A stretch of DNA of 64,000 nucleotides from a virus. The notes beneath the pieces were generated by a model that saw only the letters and a program-made list of their open reading frames with translations, was not told the origin of the DNA and searched no databases. The position numbers and the translations under genes were made by a program. Shown one piece after another: positions 10,568 to 61,311 of the stretch. The stretch is from the IMG/VR virus record IMGVR_UViG_3300019458_000032, positions 12,588-76,587 of that record. One strand, given 5' to 3'. Positions within the stretch are counted from its first letter, which is position 1, and each line of letters opens with the position of its first letter.

Positions 10568-11418
10568 ACAGGTCTGCGTTCATTTGTATTTGCACTGCTG
10601 AATACCTAAATCACTACATTGAACTCTATAAGAGTTTACAAGAACATGCTCCAGGTGAGAAACAAATTCTCTATTATATTAAAGCAAAAAAAACAATAGA
10701 TGAAATAAAAGAAGAACATGGATTCGACGAAATAGTTGATTTAACTTCAGAATTTTATACATGTAATCCTTCATACAATATTCTAGAACGTATATGTTCT
10801 CTTAGAGCTAGAGTTGTATTGGATGCTTTCGAGAAGGGATATACAAATGTTGTATTTCTTGGAGCTAAAGTTGAGTTCTTTAGCAGTCCTCATCATCTAA
10901 TTAGCCCTTTAAATGCCTTTATTGCGCCCTATAAGGCTGTTGTAACCCCTCATATCCTAGAACCCTTACCAGATGATGGAAAGTTTCCTTCTAACGCTTC
11001 TGTGAGCTTTACAGGCCATATATCTACAGATGTTGTAGCTTTTAGAAATGACCCAGAAATCATAAAATTTCTTCAATGGCAAGATGAAATTATGAAAACT
11101 CAATGTAAAACTACAAATAACACATATTTAGATCAATCCTGGCTTAATTTTCTTCCATTCTTTGTTAATAATGTTTACATTCTAAGACATCCAGGTTATA
11201 ATGTAGCTTATTGGTGCTATAAACAAAGAAATATGGAAAAATGTATGGATGGTCGTTGGATGGTTTCAAATAAAGATGAAAGAGATTTTCTAACATGTTT
11301 TCAATATTCAGGATTAGATTTAAATAACCCTGAGAATATAAGTACACATCAGAATAGATATAAAGCAGAAGGTGATTTTTTAGAATTTTTAAAAGATTAT
11401 GCTAAGAGAGTGAAATGA
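10564..11418 (+). CDS. putative GT-A-like glycosyltransferase
   Basis: AFICIC-EYL N-terminus; DQSWLN-LP, ILRHPGYNVAYW and FQYSG pattern seen in glycosyltransferase-like proteins. No canonical DxD seen. Confidence 0.6.
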   Translation: MNRSAFICICTAEYLNHYIELYKSLQEHAPGEKQILYYIKAKKTIDEIKEEHGFDEIVDLTSEFYTCNPSYNILERICSLRARVVLDAFEKGYTNVVFLGAKVEFFSSPHHLISPLNAFIAPYKAVVTPHILEPLPDDGKFPSNASVSFTGHISTDVVAFRNDPEIIKFLQWQDEIMKTQCKTTNNTYLDQSWLNFLPFFVNNVYILRHPGYNVAYWCYKQRNMEKCMDGRWMVSNKDERDFLTCFQYSGLDLNNPENISTHQNRYKAEGDFLEFLKDYAKRVK

Positions 11419-11615: not shown

Positions 11616-12235
11616 AAGTAATAATCCCAGCATGCGGCTACGGAATCAGGATGGGGATGCAACCCAATGAATCTAAAGAGATGCTCATTGAAGAAATGCC
11701 TCATCCTGCTATGAAAAATTACAATCAACCAATTATTCAATATTCATTGGATATTTGTGAGCAATATAATTTAGATCCTATTGTAATAACTAGACCTCAC
11801 AAGGAAGATCTTATAGAATATCTTCATAAACACAGAATTGAAGTTATGATTCATCAACCCAAAGACGGTGAAGAGTGGGCATTAACAGTATTAGCTTCAC
11901 AAAGACATTGGGAAGAGAATAATTTATTATTACTACCCGATACAAGATTTCATAGCACGGGTATTGTTTTAGATATTGAAGAGGGTTTAAAATTGGGCAA
12001 TAATGCAGTATTTGCATTACATAACGTAGATGATCCTCATAACTGGGGAATTATTAAAGATTATAATTTAATTGAAAAACCCAAAACCCTTAGTGTTGGA
12101 AGATATTGGGCTTGGGGGTTAATTGCGTTTAAAGATTATTATGGAGAAGAACTATTTTCTTCAAAACAATTAACTTTAAAAGATGTTGGATTTTGTTATT
12201 TAGATCACTTTAGAGATATTACGAGAACTAAATGA
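11612..12235 (+). CDS. sugar-phosphate nucleotidyltransferase (NTP_transferase family)
   Basis: KVIIPACGYGIRM...KEML; LLPDT; WGII...EKP. Confidence 0.8.
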   Translation: MKVIIPACGYGIRMGMQPNESKEMLIEEMPHPAMKNYNQPIIQYSLDICEQYNLDPIVITRPHKEDLIEYLHKHRIEVMIHQPKDGEEWALTVLASQRHWEENNLLLLPDTRFHSTGIVLDIEEGLKLGNNAVFALHNVDDPHNWGIIKDYNLIEKPKTLSVGRYWAWGLIAFKDYYGEELFSSKQLTLKDVGFCYLDHFRDITRTK

Positions 12236-13299
12236 AAGATAACTTTGGATTTTATTATTACGATATTTCCAAATTTGAAGAACTTGTAGAACAGAAGTAT
12301 ATAAGAAAATCTGAAACAGATGATCTTGTTTTATACACATATACAGAACAAACAACTTATGAAAAATATTGGAATGACTATACAAGAGCCGCCAGAGGTT
12401 TAATTCTAGATAAACACACAGGAGAACTTGTTGCTAAACCTTTTCCTAAGTTTTTTAATTTAGGCGAAATGCCTGAAGTATATTTAACAAATCTTCCTTC
12501 TCTTGAATATACTGTATCCGAAAAAGTTGATGGTTCATTGGGTATTATTTATTTCTATAACAATAAATGGAATGTTGCAACAAAAGGTTCATTTGCTAGT
12601 GAACAATCAATTAAAGCTGAAGAAATATTAAAAAAATATGATTTAACTAAAATTAACACTAAAACAACTCTACTAGTTGAAATTATTTATCCTGAAAATA
12701 GAGTAGTTGTAGATTATAACAACGAAGAAAAACTTGTTTTAATCGGTGCTTATAATAATGTAACCGGTAACGAATTTATAGATTTAGATGTCTATTCAAA
12801 TTTAACTGGTTTGCCATTAAGAAAAACATATTCATACACAATCAATGAAATGATAAAGTTACAAAAAACTATTCCCAAGAATCAAGAGGGATTTGTTATT
12901 CGTTTCTCATCTGGATTAAGAATTAAAATTAAAGGCGAAGAGTATTTAAAAATACACAAAATTATATCTAATTTATCACCATTAAGTTTCTGGGAAGTTA
13001 TGGAAAATGGAAAAGTTCCTATTAACTATATTCAACAAGTACCAGAAGAATTTCTTGACCAATTTGAACCAATTGTAATTGAGTTAGAAAAACGATATAT
13101 TCAAATTAAAAAAGAAGTTGAAGAAGAATTTCACACTTTGCCAAATAAAGAATCTAGGAAAGAAGTAGGATTGCATCTTAAAAAATTTACATATAATCAT
13201 GAATCCGCAATGTTTCCTATGTTACTTGATAAAAAAGATGTTGTAGACAAATATATAATGAAACAAATTAGACCAAAGGGTAATAGCTTTAATTTATAA
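12232..13299 (+). CDS. T4 Rnl1-like RNA ligase
   Basis: ARGLI...KPFPKFFN, motif I EKVDGSLG, EGFVI, KIK-EEY. Confidence 0.9.
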   Translation: MKDNFGFYYYDISKFEELVEQKYIRKSETDDLVLYTYTEQTTYEKYWNDYTRAARGLILDKHTGELVAKPFPKFFNLGEMPEVYLTNLPSLEYTVSEKVDGSLGIIYFYNNKWNVATKGSFASEQSIKAEEILKKYDLTKINTKTTLLVEIIYPENRVVVDYNNEEKLVLIGAYNNVTGNEFIDLDVYSNLTGLPLRKTYSYTINEMIKLQKTIPKNQEGFVIRFSSGLRIKIKGEEYLKIHKIISNLSPLSFWEVMENGKVPINYIQQVPEEFLDQFEPIVIELEKRYIQIKKEVEEEFHTLPNKESRKEVGLHLKKFTYNHESAMFPMLLDKKDVVDKYIMKQIRPKGNSFNL

Positions 13300-60004: not shown

Positions 60005-60021
60005 TTGGCACAGCGTCTGCA
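60005..60021 (+). promoter_or_regulatory. sigma-54 (-24/-12) promoter
   Basis: TTGGCACAGCGTCTGCA: GG(60007-8)-N10-GC(60019-20), close to consensus YTGGCACG-N4-TTGCW. Confidence 0.75.
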
Positions 60022-60032
60022 ATACTGGTTTG

Positions 60033-60446
60033 CAAGCGACGCAATTGTAGAACGTAGCCTCTGTCGTAGACGGCACCGCGATGTAACCAGTGCTTGTCTT
60101 GTTTCACCTAGAGGTTGTGCTTGAAGTGAGCAAGACTGTAAGTCATTGAGGGCGAGAAGCTAGTCGAAAGGTTGAGAGCTAACCTGTCTATGGCATGGGA
60201 AGAGTGAACACTCACGAGTACCATTAAGACCTAACAGCGTTAGATTAAATACCAAGTGGTCTCAATCTTATACCCTGTACTGAAGTCCTTTCGAGGATTG
60301 TATAGAAAATATGGTATTATAGCCGCTGAGAACAACGCACATGAGAACAACCCGAGCGATAAGACCCATGTCAAAGTTAGGGCTTATGTGAAATAAACTC
60401 AGTGAATTGCTATTGCTGACGTGTCTCGCGTTAGCAAGTGAATAGA
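60033..60446 (+). ncRNA. candidate large structured ncRNA/leader
   Basis: No + strand ORF of 60 aa or more, GC-enriched relative to flanks, many hairpins including a UUCG loop; bounded by the sigma-54 promoter and a hammerhead. Confidence 0.6.
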
Positions 60447-60516
60447 AGACGAAACAGGGAAATACTGTCAAAAGTATTCCCTGTAGCGTAGTTATTTCAC
60501 TACGCCTGATGAGTCT
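60447..60516 (+). ncRNA. hammerhead ribozyme, type II (HH1); predicted cleavage after GUA 60485
   Basis: AGAC-GAAA-[CAGGGAAATACT gtcaaa AGTATTCCCTG]-TA-[GCGTAG ttatttca CTACGC]-CTGATGA-GTCT. All core nucleotides and three stems present. Confidence 0.92.
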
Positions 60517-60538
60517 AATATTGTAAAGGAGAAATACA

Positions 60539-60808
60539 ATGGAAAATCAAGAGAAGTTAAATTCTATTCAAGCTCAAATTGAGGCTCTTAAAGCTGAAGC
60601 TAAAGCTTTAAAGCCGAAAAAAGAGCATACTCTCTCATTCAAAGTGAATGAGAAAGGTACAATTTCTGTATATGGATTGCAGAAATTTCCAGTGAGTTTG
60701 TATCCCACACAATGGGAAAAACTCTTTAAAACTATGCCTGAACTCATGAAGATTGTTCAGCCTTTAATTGACGCTGCTAAAGCTGCTAAAGAAGTTAAAA
60801 CAGCCTAA
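60539..60808 (+). CDS. small protein (coiled coil plus KV-EKG-ISVYGL-KFPVSLY-QW domain), flanked by two ribozymes
   Basis: AAGGAG RBS; first ORF after the sigma-54 promoter. Confidence 0.75.
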   Translation: MENQEKLNSIQAQIEALKAEAKALKPKKEHTLSFKVNEKGTISVYGLQKFPVSLYPTQWEKLFKTMPELMKIVQPLIDAAKAAKEVKTA

Positions 60809-60842
60809 TTCGACCTACCCTTCCCCTTACCCCTACCCTTAA

Positions 60843-60904
60843 GGTCGAAACGCTGTAGTGAGCCTATTACAGCGTCTGAGAGTGTATCTTTCACTGAGGA
60901 GACC
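60843..60904 (+). ncRNA. hammerhead ribozyme, type II (HH2); predicted cleavage after GUC 60876
   Basis: GGTC-GAAA-[CGCTGTAGT gagcct ATTACAGCG]-TC-[TGAGAG tgtat CTTTCA]-CTGAGGA-GACC. Confidence 0.9.
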
Positions 60905-60909
60905 ATAAG

Positions 60910-61311
60910 ATGATGACATATGATCGTGCTAGAGAGTTGTATAACTCTGCTAGAAATAAAGCTAAAGGAAAGCCTATAGGAAATAATCTTAGGCTTGTTA
61001 AAGTTTGTATGGTTGATAAGTATTACGAGCAAGAGGATGTAGTGATTACATTGCCTGTATATGGGATTGTTTATCACGACACTGTAATTGTAAAGATATA
61101 TCCTTGTGATGCACCGTTTAATGAATATAGGATATATAATGGTGGATGGTTCTCAATAACAACAAAGAAGAATATTAATAAGTTTATACCCTATACTGTT
61201 GTTCAACGAAAGGGTGAATGGTTTGTTCAAGTTGAAGGTAATCTTAAACCGTTTGTTGAAGGTTTAAAGTTGGGGATAAAATTAAATGTATTTCTGGCAC
61301 CTATTGTTTAA
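60910..61311 (+). CDS. phage hypothetical protein
   Basis: YHDT-IV...GGW-S-TTK-IN motif; SD GAGGAG lies within the HH2 core. Confidence 0.7.
   Translation: MMTYDRARELYNSARNKAKGKPIGNNLRLVKVCMVDKYYEQEDVVITLPVYGIVYHDTVIVKIYPCDAPFNEYRIYNGGWFSITTKKNINKFIPYTVVQRKGEWFVQVEGNLKPFVEGLKLGIKLNVFLAPIV

Follow-up and report, generated by a model that had tools for sequence, protein, structure and literature searches.

We conclude that HH1, an element in the long 5' leader of a phage operon, is very probably a genuine and maintained type II hammerhead ribozyme, which is predicted from its sequence to cleave and thereby to separate the leader constitutively from a single-gene mRNA. A second type II hammerhead, HH2, is found further downstream. 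Both are intergenic and lie on the coding strand, and together they bracket one gene of 89 aa. It is well supported that HH1 and HH2 form a new pair of hammerheads that had not been annotated, of a class and in a gene-flanking arrangement that have already been published (PMC3088659). Of modest interest beyond this are the way in which the stems seem to be braced other than by a pseudoknot, and the occurrence of a conserved cassette behind candidate sigma-54-type promoters.

The window, that is, the whole stretch of 64,000 nt that was analysed, comprises the last 64 kb of an IMG/VR virus record of 76,587 nt, for which CheckV estimates a completeness of 88%. At about 59.8-60.5 kb a leftward block of genes meets a rightward block. 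Between them there are about 700 nt without a convincing ORF, and HH1 lies at the right edge of this gap. Judging from the gene layout, the rightward operon is probably an early operon of the phage. The coordinates of the features discussed here, including those of a relative of this phage (IMG/VR contig L082), are collected in Table 1.

Table 1. Positions of the ribozymes, their parts and the neighbouring features (window numbering unless L082 is given)
Feature	Position	Strand	Basis or remark
HH1, complete type II hammerhead	60447..60516	+	core and stems read from sequence
HH1, stem II 3' strand AGAC	60447-50	+	
HH1, GAAA (G12-A13-A14-A15.1)	60451-54	+	
HH1, stem III hairpin and A17	60454..60485	+	hairpin -15.5 kcal/mol
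HH1, stem I hairpin GCGUAG(U)/(A)CUACGC	60486..60505	+	-8.3 kcal/mol
HH1, CUGAUGA (C3-A9)	60506-12	+	
HH1, stem II 5' strand GUCU	60513-16	+	
HH1, AAUA, 5' half of stem II extension	60441..60444	+	MFE fold; pairs with 60519-60522
HH1, UAUU, 3' partner of stem II extension	60519..60522	+	MFE fold
89-aa gene between HH1 and HH2, first small gene of the operon	60539..60808	+	
HH2, second type II hammerhead	60843..60904	+	descriptor match; MFE fold
Single-gene RNA expected if HH1 and HH2 both cut	60486..60876	+	391 nt, arithmetic from predicted cut sites
Sigma-54-type -24/-12 motif TGGCAC-N5-CTGCA, candidate promoter of the transcript through HH1	60006..60021	+	motif only
L082a, upstream type II hammerhead	L082 2878-2941		descriptor
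L082b, downstream type II hammerhead	L082 3247-3304		descriptor
Sigma-54-type motifs of L082	L082 2253-2268, 2342-2357, 2360-2375, 2543-2558, 3536-3551	+	fifth after second hammerhead

Read from 5' to 3', HH1 consists of the 3' strand of stem II, GAAA, the stem III hairpin, UH, the stem I hairpin, CUGANGA and the 5' strand of stem II. This is the type II topology, in which loops close stems I and III and the open stem II holds the 5' and 3' ends. Stem III (60454-60484) has 12 bp including A15.1-U16.1, arranged as 8 contiguous pairs, a bulged A60462 and 4 more pairs, and is closed by a loop of 6 nt. Stem I has 6-7 bp with a loop of 6-8 nt, which in the 7-bp form reads UAUUUC. The GUA triplet is G60483-U60484-A60485, where A60485 is A17. 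The 4 bp of stem II are followed by a 2x2 internal loop and then by a four-pair extension, AAUA/UAUU. Cleavage is predicted at 60485/60486, and the new 5' end at 60486 would lie 53 nt before the AUG (60539).

The sequence criteria for a hammerhead, as published, are the core C3 U4 G5 A6 N7 G8 A9 G12 A13 A14 A15.1 U16.1 H17 together with the pairs N1.1-N2.1, N10.1-N11.1 and A15.1-U16.1 (PMC3088659). All of them are found in HH1: CUGAUGA at 60506-12, GAA at 60451-53, A17 at 60485, and the core-adjacent pairs A60454-U60484, G60513-C60450 and G60486-C60505. Furthermore, the minimum free energy structure calculated with RNAfold for 60440-60525 is the three-way junction (-29.1 kcal/mol, z = -6.1), and none of 200 shuffled sequences folded as well.

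HH2 is built in the same order and reads GGUC, GAAA, a stem III of 11 bp, a GUC triplet, a stem I of 6 bp, CUGAGGA and GACC. Its stem II has 4 bp, then an A-A mismatch and, in the calculated fold, a four-pair extension CUUA/UAAG. The predicted cut of HH2 is at 60876/60877, about 390 nt downstream of that of HH1. Lying on one strand around 60539-60808, HH1 and HH2 are placed as clustered gene-flanking phage hammerheads are. Between the stop codon of the gene and HH2 there is a C/U-rich spacer of 34 nt (60809-60842), whereas in L082 the second hammerhead begins directly at the stop codon. An 8-bp helix of 60809-16 with 60842-49, proposed as a block of HH2, thus has no counterpart in L082. Across the 3' end of HH2 and the start of the next gene (60894-60912), the core strand CUGAGGA and the next G give GAGGAG, 8 nt before an ATG at 60910, so that this strand of the ribozyme doubles as the ribosome-binding site of the next gene; the overlap is not seen in L082b.

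To see how often such elements arise by chance, we used a descriptor of our own, which covers the three hammerhead topologies and demands an exact CUGANGA and GAAA, an H17 other than G, and stems flush to the core. Over the full 76,587-nt contig and on both strands, it matches only twice, at HH1 and at HH2, and relaxing the core by one mismatch did not bring up a third hammerhead in the contig. As a null model, 350 genomes of the same size and dinucleotide make-up were simulated with a first-order Markov chain. They contain 34 matches in total, or 0.097 per genome; the best of these has 16 contiguous stem pairs, as against 19 in HH1 and 21 in HH2, and not one of the 34 reaches either value. 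An earlier note on this DNA had described HH1 as a type II hammerhead, with each of its elements placed as in Table 1, a GUA triplet and a distance of 53 nt from the cut to the AUG. All of this can be read directly in the sequence. The note's view that three stems and both core motifs are very unlikely to coincide by chance is likewise borne out, as the simulated genomes yield about 0.1 matches each, and far weaker ones.

A search with the Rfam Hammerhead_II model, which the earlier note had put forward as a check, did not find HH1, neither at the gathering score nor at E <= 10. At the gathering score, Rfam reports no hammerhead in the whole window. With Hammerhead_II itself (RF02276; gathering score 37 bits) both HH1 and HH2 are undetected at E <= 10, whether short slices or the contig are searched. 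Narrow Rfam scans at E <= 10 gave only weak and partial matches to Hammerhead_1 (13.8 bits) and Hammerhead_3 (14.5 bits). The source of the 13.8-bit match is CUGACGU-GUCU at 60416-60426, a near-copy of CUGAUGA-GUCU with U for A9. Located 20 nt 5' of AGAC, this segment could close stem II transiently from the wrong side.

We attribute the miss to the sensitivity of the model, since it also misses L082a: in spite of its perfect core and its significant pseudoknot of 5 bp, this copy is unreported by Hammerhead_II at E <= 1. L082b, on the other hand, scores 40.6 bits and is thus above the gathering score. In this lineage the model therefore detects one of four copies and misses three. For HH1 and HH2, the failure is probably due to the geometry of the extended 4-bp stem II and to the long stem III. 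They share with RF02276 the open stem II with capped stems I and III, the A...A that flank stem II, and the C15.2-G16.2 pair. They differ from it in that their stem II has 4 bp, where the consensus has 2, and is extended past an internal loop, that stem III has 12 bp (HH1) or 11 bp (HH2), and that they are without a significant pseudoknot between loop I and the 3' tail, which the consensus has.

Further support for HH1 comes from comparison with L082, an IMG/VR contig of 10.8 kb that codes for a homologue of the 89-aa protein with 49% identity. Its layout is the same as that in the window: a hammerhead, the homologous gene and another hammerhead. The two regions are also syntenic: homology extends to three leftward genes as well as the small gene, with a similar long gap in between. 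At the nucleotide level no similarity between the window and L082 was found beyond the ribozyme core, and none between the leaders of the two phages.

We compared the stems of the four ribozymes (HH1, HH2, L082a and L082b) in an alignment that was anchored on the core by hand and counted with a script. Between HH1 and L082a there are 17 comparable stem pairs, of which 5 are identical and 12 are changed on both sides, while none is broken. Between HH2 and L082b, 8 pairs are identical, 1 is changed on one side and 6 on both sides. Taking the four copies together, two or three types of pair occur at 12 of the 15 shared pair positions. The only pairs that are the same in all four are G10.1-C11.1, A15.1-U16.1 and C15.2-G16.2, and these are positions known to be conserved in hammerheads. 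A lack of stem covariation among homologues had been named beforehand as grounds for giving up HH1; with 12 of 17 pairs changed on both sides in L082a and none broken, the comparison, although limited to four sequences, is in favour of HH1.

L082 stems from a survey of the relatives of the 89-aa gene. Profile-guided scans with this family yielded 154 loci of metagenomic or viral origin and a further 80 in cellular genomes. It was this set, which does not include the contigs of the nearest three relatives of the protein (P0003-P0005, 54-65% identity), that was surveyed for hammerheads. Convincing hammerheads were seen in one of these 234 loci, L082, and in none of the other 233 (153 metagenomic or viral and 80 cellular). 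Since so many loci of the family are without a convincing hammerhead, the ribozymes appear to go with this phage lineage rather than with the family of the gene. The Manatee Spring phage (L001), a tblastn match, was considered and set aside: it has no convincing hammerhead, and the single match of the descriptor is weak, of type III, and falls within coding sequence on the minus strand.

Other ways of looking for relatives gave little. Using blastn, we found no match of the region among 50,697 phage records. Single-protein scans of IMG/VR with four neighbouring proteins brought up no relatives, and the 133-aa protein encoded downstream has no relative among 5.8 billion proteins. With the leftward 170-aa protein as query, nothing but the contig of L082 and one truncated contig was retrieved, the latter without hammerheads. 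Scanning for DNA patterns like that of HH1 returned one match that is not a hammerhead and one unrelated type II hammerhead of a phage. In this hammerhead, on IMG/VR phage contig L238 (8855-8924, +), stem II comprises 4 bp (GGAC/GUCC) and the triplet is GUA; its contig has no proteins in common with the phage studied here.

The protein family itself is large, unannotated and widespread. It is found in phages and in many metagenome-assembled genomes, mainly of Acidobacteriota and also of Myxococcota and Bdellovibrionota, and some genomes carry several copies of it. The 89-aa protein has an N-terminal helix and a conserved core KG-x-SVYG...FPV-x-LY..QW. In its AlphaFold model (pLDDT 83), a long helix at the N-terminus is accompanied by three strands and two more helices. 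Searches with this fold returned only weak rows resembling PC4/Sub1, a binder of single-stranded DNA (Foldseek E > 1, VIA-align Z 4.2). Nothing usable was obtained for the protein from Pfam, PHROGs, NCBIfam, a sequence search of the PDB or the ESM Atlas.

Most type II hammerheads are reported to have a pseudoknot, in which loop I pairs with the nucleotides that directly follow stem II and without which cleavage at low Mg2+ is not fast (PMC3088659). For this pseudoknot-stabilised group, a pairing of at least 4 bp is expected there. In HH1 the corresponding pairing is UAUU/AAUA at offset 0, whose 4 A-U pairs do not exceed chance (shuffle P = 0.68), and in HH2 it comprises three pairs. The pseudoknots of L082a and L082b have 5 bp (shuffle P = 0.005) and 6 bp (P = 0.02), respectively. 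As HH1 has no significant pairing of this kind, its cleavage at high speed and physiological Mg2+ is not assured. A 4-bp stem II that faces a looped stem I of 6-7 bp is, we assume, the geometry of the classical hammerheads stabilised by loop-loop contacts. The same cassette of hammerhead, gene and hammerhead is found in two distant phages, with what seem to be two ways of bracing stems I and II: in one by a pseudoknot between loop I and the 3' tail, in the other by a 4-bp stem II that is extended past an internal loop.

HH1 is expected to be part of a transcript, because the 89-aa gene requires a promoter, and the stretch from HH1 to the ribosome-binding site is too short to hold one. Transcription would thus start upstream, where the best candidate is the sigma-54-type promoter at 60006-60021; a sigma-70-like match is found at 59925-53. 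No terminator-like site was seen on the + strand between these two candidates and HH1. Sigma-54-type motifs (TGGCAC-N5-TTGCW, with GG and GC fixed) occur upstream of the first hammerhead in both phages. On the + strand of L082, four of them are grouped within 300 nt of sequence upstream of L082a, one being a perfect match. In the whole 64-kb window there are only two at <=1 mismatch. A sigma-54 activator domain (PF00158) is not encoded in the contig. An Rfam scan of the leaders of both phages returned nothing.

In the mechanism that we propose, the three-way junction would form once the GUCU strand of stem II has been made. The 2'-OH of A60485 would then attack its own 3' phosphate, and the cut would part a non-coding leader of about 450 nt from the mRNA. 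At its 3' end the leader fragment would carry the stem III hairpin and a 2',3'-cyclic phosphate, and at its 5' end the mRNA would carry a 5'-OH with the stem I hairpin flush to it. A 2',3'-cyclic phosphate and a 5'-OH are the ends established for hammerhead chemistry. The two products should separate, since stem II has only 4 bp and a weak extension and contributes by itself about -2 kcal/mol. HH2 is predicted to cut the same transcript 391 nt further on, which would set the 89-aa gene free on an RNA of its own that has hairpins at both ends; in L082, the predicted cuts give a counterpart of 365 nt.

With the type II permutation, each of the two new RNA ends is left with a hairpin, which offers a simple rationale for its use by phages on operon transcripts. 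We infer that the ends, a hairpin with 5'-OH on one side and a hairpin with cyclic phosphate on the other, uncouple the stability and translation of the gene from those of the leader and of the downstream genes. That such ends would protect RNA follows from general knowledge of bacterial mRNA decay.

The main rival to constitutive cleavage is regulated cleavage. HH1 could be a conditional ribozyme, in which alternative pairings gate the cut and expression responds to transcription speed, to a factor or to a ligand; we consider this unlikely. It would fit with the fold calculated in a long context, where the minimum free energy structure exchanges stem I for a helix of about 17 bp (60380-60399/60490-60506) and is better by 2.6-5 kcal/mol than the fold constrained to the ribozyme. 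Furthermore, the GUCU at 60423-26 of the pseudo-core CUGACGU-GUCU (60416-26) could compete for AGAC, and the leader of about 450 nt has neither a + strand ORF of at least 60 aa nor an Rfam family. However, the same thermodynamic disadvantage is seen in all four hammerheads, including the Rfam-positive L082b. In long-context folds of HH1, a probability of about 1e-3 is obtained for the ribozyme structure, and since the value is equally low for L082b, it does not discriminate. The disadvantage arises mainly from the short helices of stem II and from tertiary contacts that the model ignores. Neither the leader nor the competing segment 60380-60399 is conserved in L082, and a minor active population would be enough, because cleavage is irreversible. 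For these reasons, we do not read the competition in the long folds as evidence for a switch. Much less probable still is that HH1 is a chance match or a decayed relic that no longer cleaves, with hairpins that act only as ordinary RNA structure, be it for stability, for pausing or as a site of RNase III. HH1 does go without an Rfam hit and without a convincing pseudoknot. Yet the core is perfect in HH1 as well as in HH2, the descriptor expects about 0.1 chance matches per genome and those with much weaker stems, and two copies bracket one gene in an arrangement that recurs, with compensatory changes, in a phage whose protein is 49% identical. A relic would not have kept 13 of 13 core positions in each of four copies when almost every position of the stems has changed.

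Another reading takes the cut ends as the starting point of a ligation: HH1 and HH2 would excise the 391-nt gene RNA, and the host RtcB or repair enzymes of the phage would make of it a circular, re-joined or spliced product. The 5'-OH and 2',3'-cyclic phosphate ends left by hammerheads are substrates of RtcB. The phage encodes an Rnl1-type RNA ligase of 355 aa (12232-13299, +; PF09511 E = 3e-20, phrog_562 E = 1e-59) and, just before the window, a polynucleotide-kinase-like P-loop kinase of 148 aa (L241 1492-1938, +, which is contig 10696-11142). The kinase matches AAA_33 (E = 5e-16) and also phrog_505 (polynucleotide kinase) and PF08303 (the kinase domain of tRNA ligase). On the other hand, a ligase of the Rnl1 type together with a kinase is the standard answer of phages to host anticodon nucleases, in which cut tRNAs are repaired, and this is what such a pair usually does, though in principle the two enzymes could work on ends made by ribozymes as well. 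HH1 and HH2 are not repeats of each other, and at the junction of a circle GUCU would face GGUC in a mismatched stem II. In the contig we found no RtcB and no phosphatase domain of the PNK type. Finally, when Perreault et al. examined clustered phage hammerheads for circular or spliced products, none turned up (PMC3088659). We therefore think it highly improbable that the gene RNA is excised for ligation. Very improbable, too, is the broader proposal that either the 391-nt RNA or the leader of about 450 nt is healed and sealed by the phage kinase and Rnl1 or by host RtcB to a circular or re-joined RNA, or is a stable and functional non-coding RNA behind a sigma-54 promoter.

Constitutive separation of leader and mRNA by a maintained hammerhead, which remains our preferred reading of HH1, agrees with what has been described in other systems. 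Type II hammerheads are common in bacteria and phages, and for clustered hammerheads on either side of single prophage genes cleavage has been shown both in vitro and in vivo (Perreault et al. 2011, PMC3088659). For these clusters it was proposed that they cut long phage transcripts into single-gene mRNAs. Like the clusters of Agrobacterium, Azorhizobium and Clostridium scindens, HH1 and HH2 have a canonical core and a phage context, and are two ribozymes a few hundred nucleotides apart around one small gene of a polycistronic transcript. They differ in that the bracketed gene belongs to another family, and that HH1 is predicted to remove in addition a leader of about 450 nt behind a sigma-54-type motif.

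In Desulfovibrio vulgaris, three type II hammerheads are active in vivo (Olzog et al. 2021, PMC8782182). Two of them, loc 2 and loc 3, are similar to our pair: they lie about 250-300 nt apart on one strand near small phage-like genes. However, they belong to a prophage-like region of the chromosome, were found by existing models and have been shown to cleave in vivo and in vitro, whereas HH1 and HH2 are known from their sequence.

The pair does not change the established picture of phage hammerheads. Its value lies rather in better models for annotation and in a compact system in which the effect of cleavage on expression could be tested. For the position of HH1 in its operon, the closest parallel is the HHphage hammerhead of the haloviruses HF1 and HF2, which lies just before the first ORF of an early transcript and whose cut site coincides with the mapped 5' end of the mRNA (PMC3088659). 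HHphage is a hammerhead of an archaeal virus and has a variant core with insertions, unlike HH1, and it lies 13 nt from the start codon; in HH1, this distance is 22 nt when counted from where stem II ends and 53 nt when counted from the cut site. Both are placed immediately upstream of the first ORF of an operon.
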